Part shown: in pieces, positions 39,907 through 64,000 of the stretch
Layout of the letters: the number at the start of each line of letters is the position of its first letter
Numbering within the stretch: position 1 is the first letter of the stretch
Source: Candidatus Aminicenantes bacterium UBA6072
GTDB taxonomy: Bacteria; Acidobacteriota; Aminicenantia; UBA2199
NCBI GenBank assembly: GCA_002436105.1
Contig: DIXU01000008.1
Location: 145,979 to 209,978, forward strand
Length of the DNA stretch: 64,000 nt
Direction of reading: 5' to 3'
Position numbers and translations under genes: made by a program
Notes under the pieces: generated by a model
What the model saw: the letters and a program-made list of their open reading frames with translations, nothing else
Databases searched by the model: none
What the model was told of the DNA's origin: nothing

Positions 39907-39915
39907 GCGCCCTCC

Positions 39916-42718: not shown

Positions 42719-42735
42719 TTGACCAACCGAATGGT

Positions 42736-42751: not shown

Positions 42752-42832
42752 TATAACATCGGATCAGGAACCTGTCAACACTTTTTCGTTTTTTCTTTTC
42801 CGGGCCGCTGTTCTGCTATAATGCGACCGTCA

Positions 42833-43588
42833 ATGAAAACAAAAGCGATCCTGCTCCTTCTGCTGCTGCCCGGCCTGCCCCTGGGCGCTGCCGGCTGGGA
42901 ATGGCAGCTTTCCCTCGGCCCCTGGACGCTGCAGCCGTTCAACTCGCCGGTGGAGCGCCTGGCCGAGAAGGTCGTCGACGAAGAGGCAAGCGAACTGCTC
43001 GCCCCCCTGCTCGAAAACTTCACCGTCATCGGCTACACCCCCCGGGTGACCATGCGCTCGGGCGGGATCTTTTTCAGCGCCGCCGTCTGGCGGCATCTGG
43101 CCGCGAAGCGCTTGGCGGTGGGCCTGGCGGCAAGCCATCTCCGTTTCGACCTGCCGTTCACCCTGCGCGACGACCAGGAAATCTTCTACCAGGGGATACC
43201 CGTCGCCTCCATCACCACCCGCGGCGAGGGCCGCATCCGGCTGCGGACCTTCATGCTGGCGGCGCTGGGGCGCTGGCGGGCCTTCCAGCGCGGCCGCGCG
43301 ACGGCCTATGCCTCGCTGGGGCTGGCGCTGCTGCGCTTCAGCGGCGACCTGCACCTGCCGCTGAACGCCCGCATCCGCTCGTTCCTGGGCGATGCCGAGC
43401 TGGACCAGGTTCAGGATATGACCCTGGACGAACTCCGGGAGGAGAACGGCGGCATCCCGGCCTGGAGCGTGTCCCCCGCCCTGGGCGCCGCGCTGCACTA
43501 CCGGCTCGGGGCGGCGGTCCGGCTGGTCATCGATGCCAGCCTGTCGCAGGGGACATTCCTGTCCGCCGGGCTTGGTTTCGATCTCTGA
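42833..43588 (+). CDS. secreted hypothetical protein (possible OM beta-barrel)
   Basis: Signal peptide MKTKAILLLLLLPGLPLGAAG. No recognisable motif. Confidence 0.45.
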   Translation: MKTKAILLLLLLPGLPLGAAGWEWQLSLGPWTLQPFNSPVERLAEKVVDEEASELLAPLLENFTVIGYTPRVTMRSGGIFFSAAVWRHLAAKRLAVGLAASHLRFDLPFTLRDDQEIFYQGIPVASITTRGEGRIRLRTFMLAALGRWRAFQRGRATAYASLGLALLRFSGDLHLPLNARIRSFLGDAELDQVQDMTLDELREENGGIPAWSVSPALGAALHYRLGAAVRLVIDASLSQGTFLSAGLGFDL

Positions 43589-43667
43589 TCCCTTCCGCGC
43601 TGCCTCCCAACTGCAACTTTGCTGCGGACGGGAAGGACATCGCCGCGGGAGGACAAGCCCGAAGGCC

Positions 43668-44135
43668 CTACAAGCGAAATCCCAGCGTCGCGCCCACCAC
43701 CGTGTTCTTGAAAAGGCTGTTGAAATCCATGATGACGTAGGCGGTCAACTTGAGGTTCCTGGAGAACAGCCCGGCGTTCAGCTTGAGCGCGAAATCGTCG
43801 GAGACGAAGGTTTCGCCGCTGCCGATGTAGATGCCCTTGACCAGGCCGCCGCCTACAAAAAAGTTGCTGGGGGTGAAATTCAGGACCGCTCCCGGGAAGA
43901 GGAGGAATTCCTTGAACTTGAAGCCGTTGCCCACCAGCGTCACCTCGGGGCTGAGCATCAGGTACTGGCCGAGCTGGAGATCGATCTCGGCCCCGGCCGT
44001 CCACAGCAGGGGGTCGAAGGAGAAACTATCGTCGGTCATGATGCCGAAGTTGACGCCGAAGGTCGTCTGTTTTTCAAAAGCGTACAAGCCCGAGACCAGC
44101 AGCAGTCCGCAGAGAACCATGAGTGCTTTTTTCAT
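43668..44135 (-). CDS. small outer-membrane beta-barrel protein (third paralog type)
   Basis: MKKALMVLCGLLLVSGLYAF signal peptide, alternating strands. The N-terminus of the track ORF is discarded. Confidence 0.5.
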   Translation of the reverse strand: MKKALMVLCGLLLVSGLYAFEKQTTFGVNFGIMTDDSFSFDPLLWTAGAEIDLQLGQYLMLSPEVTLVGNGFKFKEFLLFPGAVLNFTPSNFFVGGGLVKGIYIGSGETFVSDDFALKLNAGLFSRNLKLTAYVIMDFNSLFKNTVVGATLGFRL

Positions 44136-44199
44136 TTTTCCTCCTTGATTATCTGGAAAAACTATATTGAATGGCAAAGTCAAAGTCAATGCACGGCAT

Positions 44200-46560: not shown

Positions 46561-46608
46561 AGCTGGAAATTAGCATAAAAAGCCGGAATAGTAAAATAAC
46601 GAACTATC

Positions 46609-46864
46609 GTAACGCGTGACGCGTGACGCGTGACGCGAAAGAACCCTGAGGTAATCCTGATCACATCTATCTTTGTTTTCGCTGGTCTGAGTATACTGGC
46701 GAACCCATGCAACGCATGACAAGCAAGCGCCGAGGGGCAATCCCGATCAAGTTCACCGCATTAATTCACTTGGTAGTGGCGTCGCTTTGTTCTTTTATTC
46801 AATGCCCATTTATAAAGATTGATTCCTGTGGTTACATGTCACGCGTTACGCGTTACGCGTCACG
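46609..46864. repeat. inverted arrays of ACGCGTG heptamer repeats flanking an AT-richer core of about 200 bp
   Basis: ACGCGTGACGCGTGACGCGTGACGCG at 46612-46637. Its near-reverse-complement CACGCGTTACGCGTTACGCGTCACG at 46840-46864 overlaps the trx stop. Confidence 0.7.
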
Positions 46865-47240
46865 TAGTCTTCGGTTCTTCCTTCTTGACTCCCAGGATCT
46901 CGGCGATCGCCTTGTCGAAGCCGCGGCGGTCCATGGCGCCGCGGGCCATCTGCGGCGGGCCGGAAACGGGGATGAACAGCAGGCTGGGGATGCTCTGGAT
47001 GCCGAAGGCGCCGGCCAGCTCCTGTTCCTTGTCGGTGTCGACCTTGTAAACGGCCAGCTGGCCGTCATAATCGGCGGAGATCTTCTCCAGGATCGGGGTC
47101 ACCATCTTGCACGGCCCGCACCAGTCGGCGTAAAAGTCGATGATGGCCGGCAGCGTGCCGCGGTATTTCCACTCCTTCTCGTTCTCGTAGTCGAATACCT
47201 TCTCGATGAACGCTTGCTTGTCCAGTTTTTCCATGTTCAT
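46860..47240 (-). CDS. trxA: thioredoxin
   Basis: WCGPC active site. Confidence 0.85.
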   Translation of the reverse strand: MNMEKLDKQAFIEKVFDYENEKEWKYRGTLPAIIDFYADWCGPCKMVTPILEKISADYDGQLAVYKVDTDKEQELAGAFGIQSIPSLLFIPVSGPPQMARGAMDRRGFDKAIAEILGVKKEEPKTT

Positions 47241-47644
47241 GCTCCTTGTTTATTTTTTTGCTTGCGAAAGGCGATGAAGTCGCGGACCACGCCCATGTCG
47301 CAGGCACGGCCCCTCTGGAAGCGGCGGCAGAACAGCTCCAGGTTCTTGCGGTCGGAGGCGAACGGCTTGCCCCCGGGGTGGCTTGCGGCCAGGGCGTTCA
47401 TCACGGCGAGCCCAACGGGCGGCAGCGCCCCGCTGAGGCGATAGAACACATGCTTGCCCTGGCGGCGCGACGCCGCCAGGCCTTCGCGCTCCAGCAGGGC
47501 CATGCTGCGCGATACCAGGGACTGGGACAGCCCGGTGACGGCCATGAGCTGGCAGACGAAGAGCTCCCGGGCCTGCAGCAGCAGCAGCAGGCGCAGGCGG
47601 TTCTCGTCAGCCAGGGTTTTCAGGATGCGGACGTCGCTTATCAC
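47237..47644 (-). CDS. ArsR/SmtB-family transcriptional regulator
   Basis: Winged-HTH (LRLLLLLQ...ELFVCQL) with Cys in a metal-site-like position. 4-nt overlap with trx. Confidence 0.75.
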   Translation of the reverse strand: MISDVRILKTLADENRLRLLLLLQARELFVCQLMAVTGLSQSLVSRSMALLEREGLAASRRQGKHVFYRLSGALPPVGLAVMNALAASHPGGKPFASDRKNLELFCRRFQRGRACDMGVVRDFIAFRKQKNKQGA

Positions 47645-48952: not shown

Positions 48953-50656
<1,704 letters not shown>

Positions 50657-50660
50657 GCCA

Positions 50661-50712
50661 GCGCTCCCTCAGCGAGGGAACACCGCCAGTCGCCTTGCTT
50701 TCGTTTTTCCGT
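50661..50712 (+). terminator. weak intrinsic terminator after acs
   Basis: CTCCCTC-agc-GAGGGA hairpin followed by a T-rich stretch, where GC content drops. Confidence 0.35.
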
Positions 50713-50815
50713 TTTCAACGAGGACCTTCCATTCAACAATTATTCAGAAAAGAGTAGAATTCATATGAAAGGCAGTACCGGGTGACCTGTAAAACGTTAC
50801 CGAGGAGAAGACAAG

Positions 50816-51724
50816 ATGCCCACTCTGCTTTGGACAGGCACGATATCCTTCCCTTTACGGCTCATGTTGAACATGGGGAACATCATTGCCTGGATAACGG
50901 GGAATGCCCGGGACTCTTCCGCGATGAAACGGAGAATGAAAGGCGGGTACAATGGCGAATACTCTGATTATGTGCGGCAATACGACAAGTCAGCGTCATT
51001 TCATTATGAAAAAATCTCCGACTCGCTCATGCAAAATATCGATTGCCGAGGGAAAAAGGTGGTCGATGTCGGATGCGGAACGGGTATCCTCTCCCTGAAT
51101 GCCCTGGAGAAAGGGGCGGCAAAATTGGATTGCGTTGACCTGTCCAGGTTCATGCTGGAAAAGTGCAGGGAAAAAATCATTGCCAAGGGGTATTCCGCCG
51201 AGCTCATTTCCTTCCATGAGGGCGATGCGGAGAGATTGCCATTCAATGATGCCACGTATGATGTCGTCTTATTCAACATGGTCTTGGGAATGATCCCGAA
51301 TCAGCAAGAAGCCATCATTGAGTTGGCGAGGATTCTTCGCCCTGGCGGTACCATCGCGCTATCAGCGCATGGTCCCGCTTATTATAGGGAAGCAATAGAA
51401 GCCGGGGTGAAAGCAATGAATTTGCGCTATTTTTTGGGTCATCGCTTTGAATATTGGCCGCGGGATGAAAACGGGATAAAAGCATTTTTCAGGCTCGCGG
51501 GCCTGGATGACACACAGACATCGCGAATGACATGGGTGGATGAATTTGAGAACGGCGGCAAGGCGTTTGATTTTTTTGCCTCGTCGACCGGGCTGTGGTG
51601 GCATCATCGCTTGCCCCCGGAGATCAGAAACAAGGAAACAGAAAAAACACGCGCGTATTTCCAGCGTAGGCATGTCACTGAAATCACCAGTGATGTGGTT
51701 TTCGCGTTTGCGTCAAAAAAGTAA
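50816..51724 (+). CDS. class I SAM-dependent methyltransferase (low-GC gene)
   Basis: VVDVGCGTGILS motif I, ILRPGG post-II motif. About 48% GC versus 65% in flanks. Confidence 0.7.
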   Translation: MPTLLWTGTISFPLRLMLNMGNIIAWITGNARDSSAMKRRMKGGYNGEYSDYVRQYDKSASFHYEKISDSLMQNIDCRGKKVVDVGCGTGILSLNALEKGAAKLDCVDLSRFMLEKCREKIIAKGYSAELISFHEGDAERLPFNDATYDVVLFNMVLGMIPNQQEAIIELARILRPGGTIALSAHGPAYYREAIEAGVKAMNLRYFLGHRFEYWPRDENGIKAFFRLAGLDDTQTSRMTWVDEFENGGKAFDFFASSTGLWWHHRLPPEIRNKETEKTRAYFQRRHVTEITSDVVFAFASKK

Positions 51725-51843
51725 AGGCACGCAATAAAGCGAATGCAGCCGGCACTGAAAGCCGCGCGATCGAGCAGCGGCGTCAAGAAAAGAGTGAAGA
51801 TAATGAATCTGAAGGTACCAGAAATCACCAATTCCGAAAAAAG

Positions 51844-52512
51844 CTAATCCAGCAGATCCTCGATCCTTCTGGCCGCGGCGAAGAGGTCGGGCTCGACCCA
51901 GTCGGCTTCGGAAAAGTCCTGGCCGCGGGTGTAGTCGTTGGGCACGGCAATGACCCGGCAGCCGGCGGCCTTGCCGGCCAGCACGCCGTTGCGCGCATCC
52001 TCGAGCACGACGCATTTCCCCGGCGCCAGCCCCAGGCGGCCGCAGGCGATGCGGTAGATTTCCGGATCGGGCTTGCCCCGATCCAGGCCGTCGGCCGTCT
52101 GCAGCACGGCGAAATACTTCCGGAGGCGCAGCGTGTCGAGGGCGATATCGAGGAATTCCCGCTGGGCGCCGGTGGCCACGGCCAGCTTGAGGCGGCCGTG
52201 AAAGGCGTTCAGGATCTCGTACAACCCGGGCATGGCGCCCAGGTCACGGCCCATCTTCTCCAGCATCAGCCGGTTGCGCCACTCGAGCAGTTCCTCGGGA
52301 GAGGTCTCGATCCCCAGGATCCCGCGCAGCAGGCGCAGCGACTCGATGGGCTTGCGCCCCATCAGCGGCCAGAGCTGCTCGTCGCGGATCTCCCTGCCGA
52401 AGTGGGCGGCCATCTCGCGCTCGGCGGCGAAATAGAGGCGCTCGGAATCGATCATCAGCCCGTCCATGTCGAAGATCAGGGCCTGCGGGATCAAGTGCGA
52501 TAGCTGCGGCAT
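51844..52512 (-). CDS. HAD-family hydrolase (beta-phosphoglucomutase-like phosphatase)
   Basis: IFDMDGLMIDSE motif I, GKPDPEIY, and a terminal D motif. High GC. Confidence 0.75.
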   Translation of the reverse strand: MPQLSHLIPQALIFDMDGLMIDSERLYFAAEREMAAHFGREIRDEQLWPLMGRKPIESLRLLRGILGIETSPEELLEWRNRLMLEKMGRDLGAMPGLYEILNAFHGRLKLAVATGAQREFLDIALDTLRLRKYFAVLQTADGLDRGKPDPEIYRIACGRLGLAPGKCVVLEDARNGVLAGKAAGCRVIAVPNDYTRGQDFSEADWVEPDLFAAARRIEDLLD

Positions 52513-52770
52513 CCGCCATTATACACGATCTCCTTCCCAGCGCAGCATATCTTGTTGTTTGTCCTTCAAGAAGTGTTTTGAGGTATCCTCATCGAGGAAA
52601 ATCCCGATTACGCCCTGGTGGCCTCGCGCAATTTCCTGCCGGTGCGCATCGAGCGCTCGGTCAATGAGAATCTTTGCAAGGGAAAATTTGCTCCGCTTAC
52701 AAAGGTAGTTTTATCAAAGCCAATAGAGGATGAAAACCGTTTTTAGAATTCATGGTTGACCGGCGGGGAA

Positions 52771-54669
52771 TCAGTCGTTGATCACCTGGATGGCAGGGTA
52801 AATTTTCCAACCTCTGCCTTTGGTAAAAGAAAAATGATTCATCTCGCAATGAGGCAAATTGATGGCATAGCCATTTTGTTGCTTATAGCCTTCATAAATA
52901 TGGATTTCCCGATGGATCGGGAATGAATCTTCGAGGATGGGAAAACCATTCTCGGTCATGGCGGGCAGGCAGGATTGCGAGAAAATGGTGGCTGCAATAT
53001 CTGCGGTTTGCGTTTCCCTCTGGGAAATCGTGAGCTGTGATGCGGAACGATGAGCCGGTTTGATCAGCAATAATGCCTGGCTCCATTTATCCATTTGCCT
53101 GGCATCAAAATCAGGGCGTTTGATCAGGGCATCGATTTCACTCATCGTCTCCGCAGATTCGGGGGTTTTCAGGGAAAACAGATTATCTTCTTTGTATGCG
53201 AAGCCATGGTCGGAATGGATCATTATGGTCGCATTATCGTAACGATCAAGGCGCTTCAACTCGGAAACGAATTGATCGATCAAGTTGAAACAGGCTTGAA
53301 CCTGGTCGTTGCGGGTCGTTCCTTCCGGGTGATAGACGAGTTTGCCGTCCAAAACATATGGATTATGTGGAAGATAAATATGCGCCTCGACATAATGTCC
53401 TTGGTGCCCGCGCAATTCTTCCTCAGCAAGCATTGTCCGAAATATGTTCAAGGCGGTACCGACCCGCAAGTGCGTATTGGAAAAATCGCCTTTCTTGCCA
53501 AAATTTCGGCTCAGTAAGCCCCGACCTTGGTCATAAACCTCTTTTCGTAATGGAACCGGTGCCAGTCTCAGCAGGCAGAGATCTGCGAAATTCAGGCGGT
53601 GCAGAATCTGATTATGCGCATGATGCTGGATTCTGTCAGCAACCGCGAAGGACACCTTTCTGAATGCAGGCTCATTTCTTTTAAAACTCGCATTCCCATA
53701 AAGGGAAGTCAGCCAACCGTTTTCCAGCATTCGTTCGGAAATGGTTGGAATGGCTGCATTCAAAATCCACTCCCGCATATTCCCACCTTTAAAAAATGAG
53801 CCGGTTTTGCAGCATGTCACCGATGGCTGAGTCCATAAATAGTTTGCTCTATTTTTCGGATAAAAAATGAAGTCTTTTAAGGTTCTTTGGTGCTTGCTTT
53901 TTGGATAGCATGTTTGAAATTCTTGTGAACCGAAACTGTCAAAAAGCAGCCGGTAGATGTTGCCGCCGGTAATGGTCGCTTGGGGAATGGGATAAGTGAT
54001 TTTTTTGGTTGGATCGGCATAACCATGGTCTGAATGACTTCCCTTGACATCCAATTTCACCAGCAGCAGGATGAGTATCAAAATGGCTATTGTTCCGCCC
54101 ATCGCTCGCAGCAATTTCCGCGGCAAACGAATGAAAGCGAATAGCAGCAGCAAAAATATCAAGCACTGCAGCAAAGTCGCAGCCACAGGTTCAAGCGGTG
54201 TCCATTTGTCCTCCATCCCGCTCGGGGATGACATGCGCAACGGGAAAAGGATTTGCGACAGGTAGACAAACAGCCCAATGAAAAAGAACAACCGGCTCAG
54301 TCGTGAGCGCCACAATGGAGAAAACGTGAACGAAAGAAATAAAAGAACCCCCATGCTTGCGCCGGCGGCAATCAAAAAGGAGTGCAATACATCGCTGGGG
54401 AATTCATTCAGGTTACCCAGGAACAATTCCACCGGAATGGAAATGAATAAAATGGTGGGCAGGAAGCTGGCCAGTGCCATATCACTGAGCCGGTCAATCA
54501 GCAAACTCTTGTGATTTTTCACAAGCCCCCCCTGTGCCATCCGCCAACATTTTATATAATTTTTTCTTTCCGTCAATATAGTTTCAATTGCCGATGGGGT
54601 GCCGATACTGCATGACAATAAATGGTTCTCTTTCCCCATATTTCCGCAAGTTGGGCTTGAAATTTCCAT
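52771..54669 (-). CDS. membrane-anchored LtaS/EptA/sulfatase-like transferase, low-GC paralog of 29949..31805
   Basis: Multi-TM N-terminus then a sulfatase-fold domain (HSDHGF). True start may be an internal Met (MAQGGL or MALASF). Confidence 0.6.
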   Translation of the reverse strand: MEISSPTCGNMGKENHLLSCSIGTPSAIETILTERKNYIKCWRMAQGGLVKNHKSLLIDRLSDMALASFLPTILFISIPVELFLGNLNEFPSDVLHSFLIAAGASMGVLLFLSFTFSPLWRSRLSRLFFFIGLFVYLSQILFPLRMSSPSGMEDKWTPLEPVAATLLQCLIFLLLLFAFIRLPRKLLRAMGGTIAILILILLLVKLDVKGSHSDHGYADPTKKITYPIPQATITGGNIYRLLFDSFGSQEFQTCYPKSKHQRTLKDFIFYPKNRANYLWTQPSVTCCKTGSFFKGGNMREWILNAAIPTISERMLENGWLTSLYGNASFKRNEPAFRKVSFAVADRIQHHAHNQILHRLNFADLCLLRLAPVPLRKEVYDQGRGLLSRNFGKKGDFSNTHLRVGTALNIFRTMLAEEELRGHQGHYVEAHIYLPHNPYVLDGKLVYHPEGTTRNDQVQACFNLIDQFVSELKRLDRYDNATIMIHSDHGFAYKEDNLFSLKTPESAETMSEIDALIKRPDFDARQMDKWSQALLLIKPAHRSASQLTISQRETQTADIAATIFSQSCLPAMTENGFPILEDSFPIHREIHIYEGYKQQNGYAINLPHCEMNHFSFTKGRGWKIYPAIQVIND

Positions 54670-54747
54670 GCTCCTTCGAGACTGAATCCACGCTGCGCGA
54701 GCATAAGGTTATGGCCGGGCGGCTGTGGCGGGCAATCCCGGCCCAAC

Positions 54748-54950
54748 GAACATGGAGGCGGTCAAGGCTTCATCTCCCTAACGCCCGGCTTCCATGCCTC
54801 CAAGATGCTCGAACTGGACATGATGGACTTTTCCGCCAGACGCTCTTGTCGCTGGCCTTTCTCCGAGAAATCAAATTCATGCCCGGGCTGCCCAAAAACA
54901 CCCGGGCAGGGTCACGGGCCGCGTACGGGTCACCTGATCGTGGGGCAAGT
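54748..54950 (+). pseudogene. degenerate copy of the acs 3' end (frameshifted, premature stop)
   Basis: About 70% nt identity to 50416-50620. Translation PGFHASKMLELDMMDF...PGCPKT versus acs PGFQASKMLELDIMNF...PGLPKT, broken by indels. Confidence 0.7.
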
Positions 54951-55056
54951 AGACCACCGGCATTTACACCCTGGAAAACGGCTGCAGCTCCCGCTATCGC
55001 CCGCCGCATCGGGATCCGCGATCGTTGCGGATCGAGAAATCTTGCCGACCGCTCCC

Positions 55057-57819
55057 CTACTTCTCCGGCGGAACAGCCAGGGAGCGGTAAATTCCGGAAT
55101 CGACGAAAGCACGATGGAAGCTTTCGCCGCTCAGTTCGCGTACCGTCGGCAGCCGGCGCAGGTAATCGTGGGTGCGGAGGATCAGGTCCCGGTCCATCAG
55201 CTTGGCCGCCGCCTCGGGCAGGGATTGAAAATAAAAAGGGTACTCTGCCCCCAGGTATTCCACCACCGACTCCAGGGGATTGATCAGCAGCGGCGTGTAG
55301 CGCACCATGCATTCGACGATGGCATTGCAGGCGGACGAGTCGTACAGGAACATGAAGACGACGTTCCGGCTCAGCAGCCAGTCATATTCCTGGTTGGACA
55401 GGCAGGGGATGGTCACGACGGAGGAGAGATCCACGTGGACGAAAGTGCCCTCGCGGACCAACATCTCCTTTTCTTTGGCCATCAGCGCGGGGAGGCTGGG
55501 ATGGCCGACGTCCAGAAAGACTTTTTTGAAGTCGGTTTTGGGCAGCTGGTGGATCGCGTGCAGCCGCCGCAGCCACCACCCCACCTGGACGATCATTTTA
55601 TCCGCGTTGGCGGCGAACGCCTCCGGGGACCATTTCAAATCGGGCGTCTCGCTGGGCAAGCGCAGCGTCTCCACCGGGATCTTCAGCATCTCCATCAGAT
55701 GCCTCTGGTGATACCGGGAAAAGGCGAAAAGCCCGCGGCACCAGGGCAGGCTTTTCCGCCAGGATTCCGAGGCGAAGATGGCCGGGTTGCTCTGTTCGGG
55801 ATGGAACCACTCGGGCAGGCGCGGCGGGACATGGATGAAGCCGATCCAGGGCGTTTCGTGGCCCTGATTGCCCTGGGGCAGCCAGGAAAAGGTCCTCTCG
55901 ATGAACGCGTCGAGCTCGACGCCCCGGGGATGGTGCAGCCCCAGCAGGAAGCGCAGCCCGTATTTCAATCCGCTGCGATGAAGCCCGAAATCCAGGCGCA
56001 GCTGGTCGGCCAAAGCGATCTTCCTCTCCCCGGCGGGAGGCATGGCGGCCAGGCTGGCGATCTCGCTTTCGGGCAGCCTTCGTTCCGCCTGCCGCGCTTT
56101 CAGGCTTTGCAGGAACTTCTTCCCCATGCGCAACGGCAGCAGCAGGAACCGGCCCAGGCGGAACGAATGGCTGTTCCGGAGGATGGCCACGTTGTTCCGC
56201 AGCAGGGAGATCTCCGCGGTTTTTTCCCTCAGCGCTCCGTTCAACTCCCCGATCGTCCGCTCATTCTCCTGCAGGTCATTCTTCAGCCGCCCGATCGACA
56301 ATTCCCTCTCTGCCAGCACACCCGTCAGTGCTTGGCTTTTCTCGCCTACTCGATCCAACTCGCCGGATAAGTGCGCGATCTCCATTTCCCTTCCCTGCAG
56401 TGCGGCCTTCAAGGCATCGATCTTCCGATTTTTCTCGATCCCGTCACTTTGCAGCCGCCAGAGCGATGCGTTTTCCTCGGTCAGCGTGCCGCTGAGCGTT
56501 TCGATCTTCCGGTCCCTCTCCTTCAGGTCGCCTTGCAGTCGCCCGATCGTCCCTTCCCTTTCGGCCAGCGCGCCCTTCAGCTCCTCGATCTCCCTTCTTC
56601 TCTCCCCCACCTCCGTGGCTCCCCGGGCAAGCGAATCGGAGAATCGCGAAACCTGCTCATTCCTGACCTTCAGCTCCGCGACCAGGCCGTCGATCGTCTC
56701 CACTTTCTTTCGCCAGCCGTCCAGCAACCGGTCCGTCATTCTCTCCGCGAGTCTTATCCAATCGCCATTCCTTCCGTCCTCCAGGATATTCCTGGATCTG
56801 ACCGGCTTCACCGCTTCCGCGGCCCGCAGCCGGGTGGCGATCCCGGCCGGAAGCCGCCTGGCGGCCTCCCGGGAAAGCACATGCGGCTGGTTGCCGGCGA
56901 TCAAGCCCTGCACTTGGTCCTCGATCGCCGCCATGGCCTCCGGCGGCAGGGGAAAGGCCGAATAGCGCGTGATATGGCAGTCGCTGAAATCCAGGGAGCC
57001 GGCTTTTTTACCGCCGAGCCAGCGCTGGACCCCGGCGCGGTAGGCGTGGTCAGCGGACAGGGCATTGATGTCCCAGAGCATGTCCGCATGCGTGGCGTTC
57101 TCGAGCAGTGCCAGCAGCCAAAGGTAATAGAAGATGAAGTACTTCTCTTTTTCTTCGTACGCCTGGCTCAGGACCCGGTAGAACGATTCTTCATCGGCAT
57201 AGTCGGAGGAATCGAATTTCAGCAACGGCAGCGCATCCCATAAGGGGCGGATAAGGTCATGTTCACGGTTTTTGCTCATGGCGATGATATCCATCAGGAA
57301 GAACGCGTCATAGCCTGTCCGCTCGCGAAGGGCCGCGTACGACTGCCATTGATCCCTCGGGTCGCGGTGGAGATAGATGTTCAATGAACGGGGATAGGCG
57401 GCCTTGAACCAGGCGCTGCGCAGCGCCGTGCGGTTGAACTGGAACAGCGGTACGCGGGGGCCGCTGGCCTGGATCAGAAAGTCGATATATTTTTTCTGTT
57501 CGGAATCGGCCTCGCTGCCCGCCTGGCAGAACCAGTCGAAGCTCAGTTCCTTCCTGAAAAAAGGCACGCCGGGGATTCCGGGCCTCAGTAGGGTTTCGTA
57601 TTCGTACAGATAGTGCCGGTCGAGCTCCGGGTGTCCCGCCGCCTTGAAATTGCGGGTCAGGACATCCTGGACGTTGTCCACGGTCACGCCCCCGAGAAGC
57701 TGATGGAACGGCTCGTAATAACAGACGTAGCCCGGAAGCTGGCGGAACTTGTTCCAGACATAGGTGCTGCCGGTGCGGAACAGGGCATGGATGAAAATCG
57801 GGCGCGCTTTCATGTTCAC
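55057..57819 (-). CDS. sulfotransferase-like P-loop domain + repetitive coiled-coil spacer + C-terminal domain (920 aa)
   Basis: N-terminal IFIHALFRTGSTYVW (5'-PSB-like P-loop). Residues about 395-560 form heptad-rich degenerate about 28-aa repeats. RBS-less, possibly leaderless. Confidence 0.6.
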   Translation of the reverse strand: MNMKARPIFIHALFRTGSTYVWNKFRQLPGYVCYYEPFHQLLGGVTVDNVQDVLTRNFKAAGHPELDRHYLYEYETLLRPGIPGVPFFRKELSFDWFCQAGSEADSEQKKYIDFLIQASGPRVPLFQFNRTALRSAWFKAAYPRSLNIYLHRDPRDQWQSYAALRERTGYDAFFLMDIIAMSKNREHDLIRPLWDALPLLKFDSSDYADEESFYRVLSQAYEEKEKYFIFYYLWLLALLENATHADMLWDINALSADHAYRAGVQRWLGGKKAGSLDFSDCHITRYSAFPLPPEAMAAIEDQVQGLIAGNQPHVLSREAARRLPAGIATRLRAAEAVKPVRSRNILEDGRNGDWIRLAERMTDRLLDGWRKKVETIDGLVAELKVRNEQVSRFSDSLARGATEVGERRREIEELKGALAEREGTIGRLQGDLKERDRKIETLSGTLTEENASLWRLQSDGIEKNRKIDALKAALQGREMEIAHLSGELDRVGEKSQALTGVLAERELSIGRLKNDLQENERTIGELNGALREKTAEISLLRNNVAILRNSHSFRLGRFLLLPLRMGKKFLQSLKARQAERRLPESEIASLAAMPPAGERKIALADQLRLDFGLHRSGLKYGLRFLLGLHHPRGVELDAFIERTFSWLPQGNQGHETPWIGFIHVPPRLPEWFHPEQSNPAIFASESWRKSLPWCRGLFAFSRYHQRHLMEMLKIPVETLRLPSETPDLKWSPEAFAANADKMIVQVGWWLRRLHAIHQLPKTDFKKVFLDVGHPSLPALMAKEKEMLVREGTFVHVDLSSVVTIPCLSNQEYDWLLSRNVVFMFLYDSSACNAIVECMVRYTPLLINPLESVVEYLGAEYPFYFQSLPEAAAKLMDRDLILRTHDYLRRLPTVRELSGESFHRAFVDSGIYRSLAVPPEK
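56142..56637. repeat. degenerate tandem coding repeats (about 84 nt unit) specifying the coiled-coil spacer
   Basis: Repeated units visible on the plus strand (…cagccgcccgatcg…ccttcaag/ctgcag…) and as a repeated SxSxxPxSxSI pattern in the shadow frame. Confidence 0.55.
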
Positions 57820-57899
57820 CTCAATTCATCGCTGCGGCCGGGATACTGAGCGTTCGTCAACATTCCGACCTCCCCTGCCATCCAGTATATCACAAGCGT

Positions 57900-59330
57900 T
57901 CATTCGCCGACGATGATTTCAACCCGATGCGGATGCCCGTCGGCGTCGGGGTCGAGTACCCGGTTGACGCGCACGAAAACGAGAGAATGAGAGCCCTGCT
58001 CGACACGATGGACATTCCGCACCCGCGCTTCCCCGGCGGCTGCAAATTTCAGCCGGTCCCCGGCCCTGACCGGCAGGGACGCATCCCTGGCGACATCCAG
58101 CAAGAACAGGTTCTTTCTTTCCCGGTGGATGCCGTTCGACCACTTGCCGTTCGTAAATCGGCTGATTGGATGCGACCGGGGCAATTCAGCGCGCCGCGCT
58201 CCATTGCCATGGTTGCAATACGCCTGCGCCAGCTTCCGCGAGAATTCTCCGGCGCGGGACATCTTAAGATGGAAATAATCCGGGATGTCGTCATCGGCAT
58301 ACGAGAAATCGGTTGTCAGCAGCGCAACGCCCCATTTTTTGAACTGTTCCCTTATTATGGCTTTATTCCTCTCATGGTTCGGCGTCGCGTAGGCCTTGAG
58401 TTCCATGGAATAAGCCGGCAGGTTTACGAAAAACACCTCCCCGCCCTGCCTCTTGATCAAGCGGACGATATCCGCCAGCACGCTGCCGTCCCAGCGGTTG
58501 AGAATCGGCCGGCGACTCGCTGCCAGCGATTGATAGTATCGCCGCGCGCTTTTCTTGGCCCTCTCCATGGTTTTCGCGTCGGTCATGATCCCGCCGATCG
58601 CCTGGATCACGGGCCTTGGCTCGGGCGGGAGCGGAGGCAGGCGCAACAGCAGGTTCGCTACCCGGTAGAGCATTTTTTGCCCCTGCGCCTCGAATTCATG
58701 CCTGACCCGTTCCCGATTGCTGACGATTTTTGAGCTTCCCAGCAGGAATTTCGCCGTCACCAGGAATTTGTCCGTCCATGCGGTTCCCTTGGAGCGCCAG
58801 AAGGGCAAGAGGTCGGGGAAGCGCAGCAGAGGCACGAGAAGCTCCGGCTGGCGGTTGAACCATATGGACTTCCAATTGCCGTGATATTGATAAAGAGGGG
58901 CATCCGACATGGCTTCAGCGAACAAGGTCACGCCTTTCAGGGATTCCGGGTATCTGCGCAGCAGGTTGCGCAGCCCAAGGTAATGAAGCTGGGGCGAGGA
59001 GAAGCCCCTGCCCAGGTTGACGGAGACGATCCTTCGCTGCCGAACCTTCGCCATCTCCACGCTGAAAGCCTTCTCGATGAAGGCGGCCGCCACCTTGGAC
59101 GAACCGACAAAGGCAAAATCGATCCTGCCCCGCCTGGCGATCGCTTCGGCGCGGGCATACCACAGGGGAGCCGCCACATCGCTCTTTCGCAGCAAATATT
59201 CAACGGCGACCAGGATCAGGAGTGGGATGACCACCCACTGGGAACGGACGAGCAGCCTTCGTAATACCGGTTTTCCGGCCTTGGAAACTGGAGAAGACGG
59301 CGGCACCATCGAGTCCTCAGAACCGGGCAT
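57900..59330 (-). CDS. membrane-anchored hypothetical protein, likely MBOAT partner (DltD/AlgJ-like role)
   Basis: N-terminal TM then a large extracytoplasmic domain. 14-nt overlap with the MBOAT gene. Confidence 0.5.
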   Translation of the reverse strand: MPGSEDSMVPPSSPVSKAGKPVLRRLLVRSQWVVIPLLILVAVEYLLRKSDVAAPLWYARAEAIARRGRIDFAFVGSSKVAAAFIEKAFSVEMAKVRQRRIVSVNLGRGFSSPQLHYLGLRNLLRRYPESLKGVTLFAEAMSDAPLYQYHGNWKSIWFNRQPELLVPLLRFPDLLPFWRSKGTAWTDKFLVTAKFLLGSSKIVSNRERVRHEFEAQGQKMLYRVANLLLRLPPLPPEPRPVIQAIGGIMTDAKTMERAKKSARRYYQSLAASRRPILNRWDGSVLADIVRLIKRQGGEVFFVNLPAYSMELKAYATPNHERNKAIIREQFKKWGVALLTTDFSYADDDIPDYFHLKMSRAGEFSRKLAQAYCNHGNGARRAELPRSHPISRFTNGKWSNGIHRERKNLFLLDVARDASLPVRAGDRLKFAAAGEARVRNVHRVEQGSHSLVFVRVNRVLDPDADGHPHRVEIIVGE

Positions 59331-60762
59331 AGATGAAATCCTGGGAGGCAGGCGCGAAAAAAACGATCAGCAGCAGGATCAAGGCCGTGACCAGGGCGGG
59401 ACCCAGCCCGTATCTCCAGCCCGGAATGCTCCGGGGGTCATCGCGGCTGCAGCCCAGTGATTCAAGCCCCCAGAGGATGAAGCAGTAAAAAAGAGGCATG
59501 AAAAGCATTTTGATATCGGCGGCGGCCGGCGGGAAATCGACGAAGATCCGGCGCAGGAAATCCCAGGCCTGGCCCAGGCTATGCGCCCGGAAGATGAGCC
59601 ACCCCAAGGCGGTCAGGTGAAAAAAAACGAATGCTTTCGCCAGCCGCAGAAACCCGGATCGGCTGCGCCTCTTTTTTCTGCGCCGGACCAAAAGATGATG
59701 CAAGGCAATGAGGATGCCGTGGTAGCCGCCCCAGACGACGAAGGTCCAGGCGGCGCCGTGCCAAAGGCCGGCGAGGAGCATGGTGCCGGTGATGCCGATC
59801 ACGTATCCCCAGTCTTCGACTTTCAGCTTCAGGGCCGGTTTTTCAACATGCCGCATCACGGCGTAGGCGATGGGCAGGAATAAATAATCCCTGAGCCAGG
59901 TGGAGAGCGTGATGTGCCAGCGTTGCCAGAATTCCACCGGGTTTGCGGCCAGGTAGGGGCGGTCGAAATTCAACGGGGTTTCGAATCCCAGGAGCTTGCC
60001 GATGCCGCGGGCAATATCCGAGTAGCCGCTGAAATCGCAGTAGATCTGGAAGGAGAATGCATAGGTCGCCAGGAGAACATGGAATCCGGAAACGGAGCCG
60101 CCGCCATCGAACACGTCATGCACGACGAGCGCGAGGTTGTCGGCCACGACCGCTTTCTTGAAGAGGCCCCAAAGGATCAACCAGGAACCCTGGATCATCT
60201 TGTCCCTTGACAGGGACCGGGGAGCATGCAATTGGGGGAGAAAGTGGGCGGCGCGCTCGATGGGACCGGCCAGGAGCTGCGGAAAGAAGGAAACGTAAAG
60301 GGCGTAATCGAAAAAATTGCCGGTGGGTTCCAGCTGCCCGCGATAGACGTCGATGGTGTAGGTCAGGGTCTTGAAGGTATAGAAGGACAATGCCGCGGGC
60401 ACGATGATGTGCAGCGCCGGTTCGGGCAGCCCGAGGCCCAGCATTCGCGAAAATCCAACGAGGCTGGATATGAAGAACCCCAGGTACTTGAAGAGGAACA
60501 GGATCCCCAGGTTGACGGCCAGGCTGATCCCCAGGTAGCGCCGCTTCTTGGCCATGCCGTCGGCGAGGTGGATCTTCCGCGCCACCAGGAAGTCCACCGC
60601 GGTGGAGAAAAGGATCAGGAACAGGAAGCGCGGGTCCAGCGCACCGTAGAACGCATAGCTGGCGGCCAGCAGCAGGCGGTTTTGCTTTTTTTGTGAAAAA
60701 AAACTATGGAGCACGAGGACAAGGCCTATGAAGAGAAAGAACTGCGCAGAGTGAAAGGACAA
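59317..60762 (-). CDS. MBOAT-family membrane O-acyltransferase (AlgI/DltB-like)
   Basis: Polytopic. Conserved FWQRWHITLSTWLRDY with catalytic His, and LWHGAAWTF. Confidence 0.8.
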   Translation of the reverse strand: MSFHSAQFFLFIGLVLVLHSFFSQKKQNRLLLAASYAFYGALDPRFLFLILFSTAVDFLVARKIHLADGMAKKRRYLGISLAVNLGILFLFKYLGFFISSLVGFSRMLGLGLPEPALHIIVPAALSFYTFKTLTYTIDVYRGQLEPTGNFFDYALYVSFFPQLLAGPIERAAHFLPQLHAPRSLSRDKMIQGSWLILWGLFKKAVVADNLALVVHDVFDGGGSVSGFHVLLATYAFSFQIYCDFSGYSDIARGIGKLLGFETPLNFDRPYLAANPVEFWQRWHITLSTWLRDYLFLPIAYAVMRHVEKPALKLKVEDWGYVIGITGTMLLAGLWHGAAWTFVVWGGYHGILIALHHLLVRRRKKRRSRSGFLRLAKAFVFFHLTALGWLIFRAHSLGQAWDFLRRIFVDFPPAAADIKMLFMPLFYCFILWGLESLGCSRDDPRSIPGWRYGLGPALVTALILLLIVFFAPASQDFIYARF

Positions 60763-61623
60763 CTATTTCCTCAATATCACTTCGAGGACACCGGTGGAAT
60801 AATTGCCGATCGCAGCGGATTGTCCGGGCAGGGAAATTCCGGAGAGCGGCCGAGATGCCATGTCTTTAATCGCGGCCAGTTTGCGTAAAACGCCTCTGGG
60901 CGGATTCCCCCATGAAGTTTCCCTCAGCTTTTCGATGGTGAGTTTTGCTTCCCTCAGGATACGGACAATGGTTTCAACCGGGTAGCGGTTCAGCATGGGG
61001 TTGTCGTAGATCCAGTCTGCGATCTTCTGGGCATGAACCTGGGGGATGCCCTCTGTCTCCAGGTAGCGCCTCATTTCGTCCTTATTGTAAATCAAATGAT
61101 ACCAATCGGGGATGGGATTGTTGGCATTGAATTCATACTTGACACCGTCGGCTTGCACCCAGACATGATGCCCAAGGCGGCAAGACCACAACGGCCCCCC
61201 GTGCAAATAGGCCCGGCCGCCTCTTGTCAGCACCCGGCATATTTCCGCTAAAACCTTATCCAGGTCATGCAGGTGCTCCAGGACGGCAATGCCGAAAACG
61301 ATGTCGAACTCCTCCCCGGGAAATTTCAAATCGCGAGCGTCCATATTGGAATAATCGATATCCGTATCGATTGGCTTGCTGGCGATATCCGTCCGATTGT
61401 TGATAACGCATATTTTTCTTGCGCCCCGTGTGCGCAATTCTCTGGCGACGCTATAAGGCGGACTTCCTCCGATTTCCAGCACCTTCTTCCCTGTGAACGG
61501 GTATCTGGCATTAAAATAATCAATGGATTGTTTTTGATATTTCTGCAATTCAAAGCCGCTGTTTTTCATGATCTGTCGGGCAAGGCCGGCGACGGCGAAG
61601 TACAGATCGGACATGGGCCACAA
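60763..61623 (-). CDS. class I SAM-dependent methyltransferase
   Basis: VLEIGGSPPYS motif I, DIVFGIAVLEH motif, RGGRAYL. Confidence 0.7.
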   Translation of the reverse strand: MWPMSDLYFAVAGLARQIMKNSGFELQKYQKQSIDYFNARYPFTGKKVLEIGGSPPYSVARELRTRGARKICVINNRTDIASKPIDTDIDYSNMDARDLKFPGEEFDIVFGIAVLEHLHDLDKVLAEICRVLTRGGRAYLHGGPLWSCRLGHHVWVQADGVKYEFNANNPIPDWYHLIYNKDEMRRYLETEGIPQVHAQKIADWIYDNPMLNRYPVETIVRILREAKLTIEKLRETSWGNPPRGVLRKLAAIKDMASRPLSGISLPGQSAAIGNYSTGVLEVILRK

Positions 61624-61674
61624 AAGGATGGTCGTACGGGGCTCAAGGATGTGCCGCCTGGCTCTCGAATCCGC

Positions 61675-64000
61675 TCACTCCAACGCCGCGGCGCGGACCC
61701 ATTTTTTGCGTGCTTTTTCCCGCTCAGCCGGCGGATAGAAGTGCCGGGCATAGCGCGAAGAATAGATCCGGTCGAACAACTCTTCCGAAAGGGAAAATTT
61801 CCGCAGAACGGCCTGGTATTCATTCCAGTAAGACTTGCTCTTGGCGGTATTCACCTTGATCAACTCCAGATCCGGCAGGAGCAGAAAATCGGCCATGGCC
61901 GGACGGAAACTTCGCTCCAGGTCCTCCAGCCGGATCAGCACCACGCTGACGTTCCCCTTGTTGAGGATCGTATAACCGCGGGCGAAGTCATATGGAACTG
62001 AATAAATGTCGATCCCGAAAACCTGCTCCAACTCCACGTTGAACCAGGAGCTTGAGTAATCCCGCTTTTCATCAAATTCGTGGAACACCGTGTTCATCAG
62101 TGTCCTGACCACCTTGTCGATATTGATCTTCTGCGGTGAGTCAAAGACCTCATGACGGTATACGGCGATGTTTTCAAAAAACGAGGACAACTTCACGCTC
62201 ACCGGGTCCCGGGTCATGGTGATGATCTTCCAAGGCACCCGCGTCCGGTTGGCATCGATCCATGCCCTGAGATCCCTGCTGAATTGCAGATCCTCCGCTA
62301 TCCTGGGGAGCTGCAGGGAATCAAAATATTTCAGCCAATCCGTTTTTCGCTGGATCCCCTGTTCCGACAACTGATGGACATGGAAAATGGCATGGCGGCT
62401 GTCGGCCTGCTTCAATGTCCTGTAAACCGATGACGACCCCACCTTGCCCATCTGGTAGATCAGGAGAGGAGAAGGATCTCCAGCACGTCCGACTTGGGGG
62501 AAATCCTGGGAAGATCCGGCCCGGGAGTTCAACGCCGTTTCGACCATCCGCGGGTATCTGCGATCTGTTCGAATCAAGTCCGCGTTCGGGGCGTTATTCC
62601 CGCAGGCGGCCAAAAGCGGCGATGGCGGGGCAGCCTGACCGGCAACGGATCCCTTGACGGCAACGAGATGACCGGCCAGGCCGTATTTGGCCAATAGCCG
62701 GCGGGGATAATCGATGGGAGAGAGGGGGGGCAGGAATCGCTGCAGATCCCGGCGCCGGCGATAGAACTGGATAAAAACCAGGGGATCACGGAAAAGCCAG
62801 GGCAAACCGATCCCGATCCTTCGCAGCAGTGGCAGAGGCATCGGGGCGGAACGCTGCCGGGCTTCCCTGAGCGTCTCAACCAGCCTTTCTTTCCGATAGA
62901 GGCAGATCAGTTCGCTGAGGCGCAGCTTGCGTAGGAGTTTGGGCTCGATGCGGCGGGCGGCGCGGAAGGCATGACGCACCATCATGATCAGTTCGCGCTT
63001 CCGGCTGGCCGCGTCCAGTTTGCTGATGTCGGTATTCTGCCGCTCATGGACTCTCCAGGCAGCCAGTGTGCGGGGCACATGGACGGTGTCGGCCAGCAAG
63101 GACGCTCGCATGCCCCATTCAAAATCGGCGGCCGGGCCGAATCGCGTCGAGAACAGGCCCACCCGCTCAAAAAGCCGCCTGCGGATCAACAATTGAGTCA
63201 TGGATGTATAAACAGTCCGCACGCCGCAATGCAGCACGCCGTCAAAAGGAGCGCGGCGGATGTGCGCATGATCGATCCAATCCTCAAAAAACCTCGTACT
63301 GAACAGGCGATCCCAGTTCAGGCGCGAACTTGGATCCCCATTTTCGTCAATGATGCGCAGTTTGCAATGGGCCAGGTCGCAGTCCGGGTTCTCGTCCAGC
63401 GCCCGAACCATATGCTCGAGGAAGTCAAGCTCCATGGTGTCATCGCTGGGCGCGATCAGCACGTATTCCCCCCTGGCCAGTCCGATGCAGCGGTTCCAGT
63501 TCACGTAAATGCCCCGCTGCGGCGTCTGGAAGATGCGAATGCGCGGATCCTTGGCGGCCCATTCCCGGAAGAATTCCCAGGCGCCGTCCGTGGATTGGCT
63601 GTCCACCACCACCAGCTCCCAATCGCCGAACGTCTGCCCCTGGATCGACCGCATCCGCTCGTCCAGGAAGGGCCTGTGATTCAGGTTGGGAAGCAGAATG
63701 GAAACTCGCGGCGCCGGCAGGGGCGCATCCGGGGCGTCATTGCCGGCGGACAATGTTCTCAGCCTTGCCAGCAGATCCTGCTCCGCCGCCAGGGATGCGG
63801 GAATGGGTGGCGGTGCCATCCCCCCATGAAACTCCCCGGCGGCCCGGCCCAGGTCATCCAGACCGGCAAATTCAAACAGCCCGGCCCCGTTGAACTCATG
63901 GTAGGAACGGGCGGCATGGGCGTTGGCCAAAACCGGCACTCCGGCCAGCAGCATTTCCCTGATCTTCGTCAAGGCGCCCGAGCCGGATTCCTGGAAACAG
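61675..64000 (-). CDS. multidomain glycosyltransferase: GT4-like C-terminus (runs off window) + GT2 + sulfotransferase-like domain
   Basis: Continuous frame to the window end. Encodes ESGSGALTKIREMLLAGVPVLA (GT1/GT4 C-terminal motif), VSILLPNLNHRPF...DSQSTDG (GT2, DxD), then LLIYQMGKVGSSSVYRTL (P-loop). Confidence 0.6.
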   Translation of the reverse strand, partial: CFQESGSGALTKIREMLLAGVPVLANAHAARSYHEFNGAGLFEFAGLDDLGRAAGEFHGGMAPPPIPASLAAEQDLLARLRTLSAGNDAPDAPLPAPRVSILLPNLNHRPFLDERMRSIQGQTFGDWELVVVDSQSTDGAWEFFREWAAKDPRIRIFQTPQRGIYVNWNRCIGLARGEYVLIAPSDDTMELDFLEHMVRALDENPDCDLAHCKLRIIDENGDPSSRLNWDRLFSTRFFEDWIDHAHIRRAPFDGVLHCGVRTVYTSMTQLLIRRRLFERVGLFSTRFGPAADFEWGMRASLLADTVHVPRTLAAWRVHERQNTDISKLDAASRKRELIMMVRHAFRAARRIEPKLLRKLRLSELICLYRKERLVETLREARQRSAPMPLPLLRRIGIGLPWLFRDPLVFIQFYRRRRDLQRFLPPLSPIDYPRRLLAKYGLAGHLVAVKGSVAGQAAPPSPLLAACGNNAPNADLIRTDRRYPRMVETALNSRAGSSQDFPQVGRAGDPSPLLIYQMGKVGSSSVYRTLKQADSRHAIFHVHQLSEQGIQRKTDWLKYFDSLQLPRIAEDLQFSRDLRAWIDANRTRVPWKIITMTRDPVSVKLSSFFENIAVYRHEVFDSPQKINIDKVVRTLMNTVFHEFDEKRDYSSSWFNVELEQVFGIDIYSVPYDFARGYTILNKGNVSVVLIRLEDLERSFRPAMADFLLLPDLELIKVNTAKSKSYWNEYQAVLRKFSLSEELFDRIYSSRYARHFYPPAEREKARKKWVRAAALE

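Follow-up and report, generated by a model that had tools for sequence, protein, structure and literature searches.

The minus strand at one end of a 64,000-nucleotide stretch of DNA from Candidatus Aminicenantes bacterium UBA6072 (contig DIXU01000008.1; this whole stretch is called the window below) carries part of a gene that fuses three domains in one reading frame: a domain of the GT-B glycosyltransferase fold, a GT2 glycosyltransferase and a C-terminal NKWYS (PF10364) domain resembling sulfotransferases. The three-domain protein is genuine; its complete gene has been recovered, its three folds are recognizable, and one of its modules is swapped for another in a sister strain. On balance, the region probably supplies residues 287-1060 of an enzyme of the cytoplasm, soluble or peripheral, that combines GT-B, GT2 and sulfotransferase functions in three complete domains with flexible linkers between them and would serve as one step of a larger locus. 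This locus is probably a gene cluster for a sulfated surface sugar polymer. A preliminary description, made from the sequence of the window, had reported a single uninterrupted open reading frame (ORF) with three catalytic-type domains, had considered such a tri-functional architecture unusual, and had proposed it as the likely polymerizing or tailoring enzyme of the locus; the observation is confirmed, and the interpretation is partly supported.

The complete gene and its three domains

The first complete codon inside the window edge begins at base 63999, and from there the frame stays open for 774 codons until its stop codon. As the true start falls beyond the edge, the ORF listing gives just an internal TTG at 63972. 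The neighbouring MBOAT protein, which is on the public record, led to two Logan contigs (L001 and L002) that match window positions 49672-64000 at 14,329 of 14,329 positions and run on upstream. The complete gene occupies L001:5906-9088 and shows a complete GT-B domain in frame upstream of the visible part. Its 1,060-residue product, P0189, is present in the public collection, and residue n of the fragment visible in the window corresponds to full-length residue n + 286.

The identical product is encoded on 12 contigs, which come from no fewer than eight samples and from three pipelines (JGI 3300002498 and 3300001567; SRR943309, SRR943311, SRR943314, SRR943315 and SRR942927), including a 333,722-bp JGI contig from sample 3300002498, a methanogenic enrichment that degrades toluene. 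Three of the 12 contigs are base-for-base identical where compared. An orthologue, P0002 (1,020 residues, 63% identical, with 60-72% identity per domain), has the same three-part build and is found on two further contigs. Because the same protein recurs on 12 contigs and P0002 is built alike, the fusion is neither a frameshift nor an assembly artefact. The two outcomes named in the preliminary description as refuting the fusion, a frameshift that splits the domains and an upstream part lacking a glycosyltransferase domain, were both checked and neither occurs. In the homologue searches P0189 was clustered under the 390-residue protein P0067 and so was hidden, and P0002 was missing from the list of the N-terminal search; our counts of fused architectures are therefore lower bounds.

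The N-terminal domain comprises full-length residues 1-372, with 286 of these beyond the window edge. The fragment within the window contains QESGSGALTKIREMLLAGVPVLAN, with QESGSGALTKIREMLLAGVPV located at visible residues 3-23, and is closed by the C-terminal helix ASLAAEQDLLARLRTLS, which in the model falls within the stretch MAPPPIPASLAAEQDLLARLRTLS. The first 60 visible residues have no Pfam match of their own. Residues 1-350 used as a query retrieve 161 proteins (E ≤ 0.001), and the 120 relatives listed are all standalone, at about 200-480 and mostly 340-400 residues. Features conserved in this family include FSRF.P....GGG.RR, NLESL, TISREE, LPYYP and CYQE.G.GALTRI.EML.AGVPVLAN. Within the family P0067 comes closest, at 93% identity to residues 1-338; its AlphaFold2 (AF2) model, built with 64 relatives, has a predicted local distance difference test score (pLDDT) of 93.5 and a predicted template modelling score (pTM) of 0.91. 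Foldseek returns 328 matches of this model in the PDB at E ≤ 1e-3. Those listed are all of GT-B fold (probability 1.0, template modelling (TM) score 0.5-0.63, identity 10-16%) and include glycogen synthase, VldE, tll1591, BshA, MshA, PimA, Gtf3 and GtfC, with the pseudo-glycosyltransferases VldE/ValL standing beside true glycosyltransferases.

At the sequence level, the best PDB match of the family profile is the C-domain of WbaZ-1 (2f9f, E 0.0055). Neither the full-length protein nor P0067 matches PF00534, PF13692 or PF13439, and P0002 stays below threshold against these GT4/GT1 models (19 bits vs a cut-off of 28.5). Each GT4/GT1 model is matched by 15-20 of 64 relatives (Glyco_transf_4 by 20 and Glycos_transf_1 by 17; best E 4e-8), and since these relatives match while our protein does not, the family is akin to the curated GT4/GT1 models but lies outside them. 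As modelled, the N-terminal part is a complete GT-B domain from a divergent branch of the GT4/GT1 superfamily. We avoid calling it a GT4 member because the sequence-level link is weak and the EX7E spacing is altered; the earlier label "GT4-like" thus holds for fold and superfamily but not for a Pfam GT4 match. The stretch MAPPPIPASL, proposed earlier as a possible internal start near residue 52, begins at visible residue 61, just ahead of the closing helix in the model. A conserved start at this site is unlikely because its Met is replaced by F in P0067 and by G in P0002, and with the site adjoining the closing GT-B helix this candidate was rejected.

The GT2 module matches Glycos_transf_2 (PF00535) at visible residues 100-229 (E 1e-22; 81.2 bits vs a gathering cut-off of 23.3) and Glyco_tranf_2_3 at residues 97-322. 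The sequence VVVDSQSTDG (visible residues 130-139; window 63583-63612) is present as first described, but it represents the first of the GT2 Asp motifs, which binds the nucleotide, and not DxD. The equivalent of DxD, the metal site, is the S-D-D of APSDD at visible residues 185-187, with its Asp-Asp at 63439-63444. Residues D419, D472 and D473 of the full-length protein are invariant across 10 homologues. The catalytic domain is followed by an extension of about 125 conserved, mostly helical residues, which is common to P0005, a GT2-methyltransferase of the sister strain. The nearest solved structures to the core are soluble GT2 enzymes, namely 3bcv, GalT1, the chondroitin polymerase K4CP (E 8e-12), SpsA and heparosan synthase B (E 5e-7). 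No named orthologue applies, because none of the NCBIfam equivalog models scores anywhere near its cut-off.

The C-terminal domain matches NKWYS at visible residues 626-755 (E 6e-24 to 1e-24; 85-88 bits vs a cut-off of 25.1), as do all 72 aligned relatives. An exhaustive HMMER search with residues 795-1060 finds 4,052 representative clusters (E ≤ 1e-3). These relatives are mostly standalone proteins of 270-330 residues that align across residues 2-262 of the domain, so the domain is complete, at about 260 residues, and roughly twice the length of the Pfam model. That model reaches just the last ~139 residues, whereas the actual domain starts with a P-loop. This P-loop, YQMGKVGSSS, resembles a 5'-phosphosulfate loop and lies at visible residues 515-524 (62428-62457), not at about residue 505 as first reported; a motif resembling the 3'-phosphate site, TRDPVSVKLSSFF, follows at 62176-62214. 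As a sequence pattern, GKVGSS (residues 518-523) and RDPVSVKLS (residues 597-605) occur in the order expected of a binding site for 3'-phosphoadenosine 5'-phosphosulfate (PAPS), and two alignments show the motif residues K, G, S and R, P, S either without any variation or with conservation of at least 90%.

The AF2 model of this domain has a pLDDT of 95.1. Its top three Foldseek matches in the PDB are the human cytosolic sulfotransferases SULT1C1, SULT1A3 and SULT1C3, and a heparan sulfate 6-O-sulfotransferase (HS 6-OST) appears at rank 12. Among the 72 relatives, Pfam matches to Sulfotransfer_1 (14/72, best 7e-6), Sulfotransfer_2 (14/72) and Sulfotransfer_3 (6/72) recur, for 34 in total, and no other family besides NKWYS recurs more than twice. 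Because fold, relatives' matches and motifs agree, although each is individually weak, the NKWYS domain is most likely a divergent PAPS-type sulfotransferase, a prediction from model and sequence that is consistent with the earlier wording "sulfotransferase-like".

Features of the fused gene and its downstream neighbours in the window, in the order in which the minus strand is read
Feature	Window coordinates	Strand	Basis
C-terminal 86 residues of GT-B (GT4/GT1-superfamily) domain	63742..64000	-	L001 continuation, P0067 model
Fusion linker NDAPDAPLPA, Pro/Ala-rich, unique to the fused form	63712..63741	-	blastn L012 vs L006
GT2 (GT-A fold) catalytic domain, full-length residues 383-608	63034..63711	-	Pfam, invariant Asp
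Conserved, mostly helical GT2 extension, ending ...LLAKYGLAGHLV	62662..63033	-	alignment of homologues
Low-complexity linker, 62 residues, GT2 module to C-terminal domain	62476..62661	-	length and sequence vary among homologues
Complete NKWYS (PF10364) domain, full-length residues 795-1060	61678..62475	-	Pfam, AF2, Foldseek
Stop codon of the 1,060-residue gene	61675..61677	-	translation
MBOAT O-acyltransferase	59317-60762	-	family match
MBOAT partner, 469-476 residues, no Pfam family, G-S-S motif near N-terminus	57900-59330	-	
918-920-residue protein, weak N-terminal Sulfotransfer_3 (residues 7-172, E 7e-5)	55057-57819	-	

Proposed role and competing readings

For enzyme activities, substrates, reaction order and sulfation itself, we infer the following scheme. 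The fused protein would work on a lipid-linked intermediate of the glycan, on the cytoplasmic side of the membrane, with its GT-B and GT2 domains transferring one sugar after the other from nucleotide-sugar donors. Sulfation of the product by the C-terminal domain would follow, ahead of export; to our knowledge, PAPS is found in the cytoplasm only. The earlier proposal of a polymerizing enzyme is not borne out, as the protein has no transmembrane helix and no QxxRW motif and the locus holds at least three more glycosyltransferase genes; the fused protein is not the single polymerase of its locus.

Several results weigh against the trifunctional scheme. In the ~40 kb examined, neither a phosphoglycosyltransferase for initiation nor a flippase, polymerase or ABC exporter was seen, and the literature yielded no measured activity for any member of the GT-B or NKWYS families. 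In the GT-B domain, the alignment to 2f9f gives QE-x10-E in place of E-x7-E, and the Lys of the GR..KG type is not conserved. For the C-terminal domain, the Foldseek scores against the SULT enzymes are weak (E 6e-3 to 2e-2, probability 0.84-0.95, TM 0.32-0.40), the domain of the window itself matches no Pfam sulfotransferase model, and the family profile aligns its RDP....S block to the 3'-phosphate block of heparan sulfate 3-O-sulfotransferase 3A1 (HS 3-OST-3A1) at a weak E of 0.16.

A different role for the same three domains is that of a chain-capping or terminating enzyme, adding a terminal residue with a sulfate cap (methyl in the sister strain) and so setting chain length, which by analogy would follow the WbdD- and WbbB-type logic of O-antigen and capsule pathways that depend on ABC transporters. 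The alternative tailoring domains borne by the GT2 module, sulfotransferase-like or Methyltransf_24, resemble caps at a non-reducing end. The locus also encodes the 918-920-residue protein with its weak Sulfotransfer_3 match and a long coiled coil, in P0004 a coiled coil connects GT2-NKWYS with a further domain, and WbbB is a documented multi-domain protein with GT1 and GT2 domains (PMC4483657). However, no Wzm/Wzt or KpsMT ABC transporter genes were seen in the ~40 kb, the fused protein itself has no coiled coil, and the many sulfotransferase genes of the locus suggest sulfation along the chain, not just at its end. We regard capping as somewhat improbable.

The NKWYS domain might instead be some other nucleotide-dependent P-loop-type enzyme or a binding domain, leaving a bifunctional glycosyltransferase with an accessory domain. 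The weak sulfotransferase matches (E 6e-3 to 0.16) would fit this reading, as would a PDB sequence search with the C-terminal domain alone that gave zero matches even at E 10. NCBIfam has no model for the family and gave scattered single chance matches among the 72 relatives, and a literature search for NKWYS and PF10364 brought up no paper. A comparison of the family with the locus's own Sulfotransfer_1/3 proteins by hhalign aligned the P-loop alone (probability 1%), but this outcome does not count against a sulfotransferase because the locus alignment was too shallow (Neff 1.9). All top Foldseek folds are sulfotransferases, however, the recurring Pfam matches belong to Sulfotransfer_1/_2/_3, both PAPS-binding motifs stand in the right order with their key residues nearly or fully invariant, and the genomic company is rich in sulfotransferases, which makes a non-sulfotransferase function unlikely.

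Doubt may also fall on the N-terminal domain, which could be a catalytically dead scaffold that recruits or positions the GT2-sulfotransferase module, for example at the membrane or at a partner. The altered spacing, the absent Lys and the missing Pfam glycosyltransferase match of this part would accord with a scaffold, and P0001, the closest GT2-NKWYS relative, does without a GT-B domain. The family is nonetheless large and its listed members stand alone, with an invariant Gly loop, invariant acidic residues E134, E153, E169 and E170, and a Q/E...G..T...E..AGVP nucleotide-sugar region typical of active enzymes. The second Glu of the EX7E-like motif is nearly invariant (E301 of P0067), while the first is displaced. 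With a ratio of nonsynonymous to synonymous substitutions (dN/dS) of 0.26-0.39 in the GT-B domain, a dead scaffold appears quite unlikely.

Two further readings are highly improbable. A frameshift or chimera joining two or three genes would be in line with the separate 390-residue GT-B gene of the UBA2190-type sister strain and with the GT2-NKWYS gene that stands alone in L005, but the identical ORF on 12 contigs and the fused orthologue speak against it, and the sister strain has a different gene order and not a frameshifted copy. A membrane-embedded processive GT2 synthase of the cellulose, hyaluronan or poly-N-acetylglucosamine (PNAG) type, which would polymerize and export the chain, could appeal to a weak NCBIfam PgaC/IcaA similarity (E 9e-10, 38 bits vs a cut-off of 422), but it is dismissed because the protein has no hydrophobic segment of membrane-helix length (highest 19-residue Kyte-Doolittle mean 1.17) and no Q/RxxRW motif anywhere, its equivalog scores are all low and its closest solved relatives are soluble.

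A more ambitious form of the trifunctional-enzyme reading is possible but tentative: a self-contained sulfated-disaccharide module in an anaerobic, non-cyanobacterial member of the Aminicenantes, with cassette-style glycan variation and with NKWYS as a sulfotransferase. If so, related strains would swap sulfate for methyl while keeping one GT2 carrier and would attach the GT-B domain to it or leave it separate, the locus of more than 40 kb with at least eight sulfotransferase-family genes would make a heavily sulfated surface glycan, and the NKWYS family of 4,000 clusters would gain its first functional assignment, as a sulfotransferase.

Origin, distribution and genomic setting of the fusion

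The best genome match is Candidatus Aminicenantes bacterium UBA2190 (contig DCVK01000034.1), which has a sister form of the locus (L006-L011, L019). In this form the same 969-residue sulfotransferase gene is followed by the standalone GT-B gene of P0067 and then by a 917-residue coiled-coil protein. Further on lies P0005 (594 residues), in which a GT2 module 77% identical to that of the window carries a C-terminal Methyltransf_24 domain. In P0005, P0006 and P0008 the match extends over 49-62% of the query before Methyltransf_24 takes over, with the swap point at the end of the GT2 helical extension, after a conserved ...KYGL.

Comparison of L012 with L006 by blastn locates the junction. Nucleotide identity is 90.7% over the upstream flank (L012 1-6123), 94.5% from the 969-residue sulfotransferase gene through the GT-B part to nucleotide 1120 of the fused gene (residue 373), and 79% from nucleotide 1153 (residue 385) onward, where the match is to the separate GT2 gene of the sister strain. 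Because the homology switches here, the fused gene corresponds to the end of a GT-B gene that runs into the beginning of a GT2 gene, with a linker of 10-11 residues between the two parts that are separate genes in the sister strain. In the origin we propose, the 3' end of a standalone GT-B gene would have joined the 5' end of a gene for GT2 and a tailoring domain, and the GT2 module would serve as a carrier for interchangeable tailoring domains, sulfotransferase-like here and a methyltransferase in the sister strain.

Between window 51844-64000 and L006/L019, the shared flank and locus genes are 88-94% identical at the nucleotide level, whereas the cassettes between the 969-residue sulfotransferase gene and the HAD gene differ. 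The window-type cassette holds the fused GT-B-GT2-NKWYS gene, a methyltransferase, MBOAT and the 469-residue gene. The sister-type cassette holds the standalone GT-B gene, GT2-Methyltransf_24 and, on the opposite strand, a Sulfotransfer_2 gene. The locus has the look of a hypervariable region for surface glycans.

P0001, the closest GT2-NKWYS relative (84-87% identical), is unfused in L005. Directly upstream of its gene, at L005:9003-10001, lies a gene for a 332-residue protein whose stop overlaps the P0001 start by one base. This protein was considered as a split-off GT-B domain and rejected, being a different domain that resembles the C-terminus of P0004, a 1,168-residue GT2-NKWYS-coiled-coil protein (homologous over its residues ~850-1168). 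It has no PDB or Pfam match, and hhalign aligns it to the GT-B family with a probability of 41% in the C-terminal Rossmann half alone. The 332-residue protein may represent another GT-B-like partner of the GT2-NKWYS module, distinct from the first.

Distribution was judged from protein searches and a non-exhaustive scan of GTDB species representatives (best 80 loci). In this material the three-domain form is seen in the P0189 and P0002 lineages alone, which agrees with the initial impression of an unusual architecture; it is a rare combination of common parts. The GT2 subfamily usually stands alone at 350-370 residues. It lies next to the same GT-B family, on the same strand, in Anabaena subtropica (L030), Pleurocapsa (L036) and a deltaproteobacterial metagenome-assembled genome (MAG; L044), and about 2 kb from it on the same strand in Halothece (L048); in all four loci the order is GT2 then GT-B, the reverse of the fusion. 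Fusions of GT2 with NKWYS occur in 10 proteins with 40-81% identity over their whole length. Giant ORFs of 2,250-3,485 codons containing NKWYS and GT2 occur in MAGs of Planctomycetota, Thermodesulfobacteriota, Pirellulales and Desulfobacterales (L054, L055, L065, L068). These recurrent pairings support a functional link among the three parts, and a dN/dS of 0.16-0.39 over all three domains reflects purifying selection. With homologues conserved along the entire length and each domain under selection, the ORF is no product of chance.

Around the fused gene, a glycan locus of more than 40 kb holds many other genes for glycosyltransferases and sulfotransferases, with at least three more of the former kind and at least six more of the sulfotransferase family. 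Downstream in the window are an S-adenosylmethionine (SAM)-dependent methyltransferase, MBOAT with its partner and the 918-920-residue protein, followed by an alkaline-phosphatase-superfamily protein, a HAD hydrolase and another methyltransferase. MBOAT and its partner show the usual arrangement of an MBOAT/acyl-transfer pair, like AlgI/AlgJ or DltB/DltD. Their longest-ORF starts overlap by 14 nt, and gene callers place the start of the partner 7 nt after the MBOAT stop. The 918-920-residue protein has a long central coiled coil (about residues 380-550, with many coiled-coil Pfam matches), is kept in the sister strain, and is reminiscent of "ruler" chain-length regulators such as WbdD. The locus ends at ~50.8-52.5 kb of the window, below which lie an AMP-binding enzyme, a pseudouridine synthase, a helicase, TetR and an efflux pair.

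Upstream of the window, the 969-residue sulfotransferase is accompanied by a GT2, a 279-residue sulfotransferase, an epimerase/dehydratase and a paralogous GT-B that is 41% identical. The locus extends at least 20 kb past the window edge (L013:1-10000, L099:1-10000), and L013/L099 contain at least six sulfotransferase-family genes, including those of 236, 279, 295, 329 and 969 residues, with two more GT2 genes. Still further upstream the locus was read in the sister strain, from its paralogue P0137; there it contains a minimum of three additional Sulfotransfer_3 genes, along with one more GT2 and a methyltransferase.

Base composition also varies, with G+C of 0.52-0.57 in window 50001-56000 and 60001-62000 vs 0.61-0.70 across most of the window, and the low G+C of the glycan locus fits a horizontally exchanged or fast-evolving cassette. 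Elsewhere, at 37174-47444, plus-strand ORFs without a family (up to 803 residues) are shadows of real minus-strand genes for a DEAD/MrfA-type helicase, TetR, an outer-membrane efflux protein and HlyD. In the 62-66% G+C DNA of the window, the length of an ORF is by itself a misleading guide.

Relation to known glycan assembly systems

Glycosyltransferases with several domains, in which GT-B and GT-A modules occur together, are familiar and all parts of the fused protein are of common kinds, so that the fusion is useful rather than surprising. Two transferases fused to a sulfotransferase-like domain were found nowhere described in the literature, and a search for Aminicenantes together with sulfotransferases returned nothing relevant. 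As a Rosetta stone, the fusion links the GT-B family, the GT2 subfamily and the NKWYS family and predicts that they act in consecutive steps. The exchange of NKWYS for a methyltransferase in the sister strain offers a natural experiment in the diversification of surface-glycan tailoring, and the fused enzyme would offer a compact tool for making defined sulfated oligosaccharides. Bacterial sulfated polysaccharides have been described as almost exclusive to cyanobacteria (PMC8205485, PMC13390465), and a sulfotransferase-dense locus in Aminicenantes would extend them past that group. For PF10364, the family description is "putative capsular polysaccharide synthesis protein".

Coupling of consecutive steps through a sulfotransferase has a eukaryotic parallel. 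The animal heparan sulfate enzyme NDST (N-deacetylase/N-sulfotransferase) fuses a sulfotransferase to a glycan-processing domain, the same principle as here, but its partner is a deacetylase, it resides in the Golgi lumen, and it shares with the fused protein the sulfotransferase fold alone. Terminators of the WbdD type, with a kinase-methyltransferase and a coiled-coil ruler, likewise tie tailoring by methyl or phosphate groups to glycan assembly. WbdD has no glycosyltransferase domain, whereas the fused protein has no coiled coil, although coiled-coil proteins occur in its locus.

WbbB of Klebsiella O12 and Aeromonas salmonicida is a soluble polysaccharide glycosyltransferase with several domains (PMC4483657). 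Like WbbB, K4CP/KfoC and PmHS2, the fused protein places several glycosyltransferase modules, GT-B and GT-A, in one cytoplasmic polypeptide, which would act on a growing glycan; unlike it, those enzymes have no sulfotransferase-like domain, and its GT-B family and GT2 subfamily are not orthologous to their modules. WbbB-type pathways depend on ABC transporters, whereas no ABC exporter is seen near the fused gene. K4CP/KfoC and PmHS2 are bifunctional polymerases.

The closest parallels for the locus as a whole are clusters that co-encode glycosyltransferases and sulfotransferases. The synechan (xss) cluster of Synechocystis 6803 joins glycosyltransferases and PAPS-type sulfotransferases in one surface-polysaccharide locus (PMC8205485), and a combination of the two has been proposed for the wps-1 cluster of Actinoplanes (PMC13390465). 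As in these systems, the two activities are encoded together here, and sulfation is proposed to be cytoplasmic, ahead of export. The xss and wps-1 sulfotransferases, of PF00685, PF03567 and PF13469 types, are separate genes accompanied by a Wzx/Wzy set, whereas here an NKWYS sulfotransferase-like domain is fused to two transferases. The host, too, is different, being an anaerobic member of the Aminicenantes, and its locus holds many more sulfotransferase-family genes.

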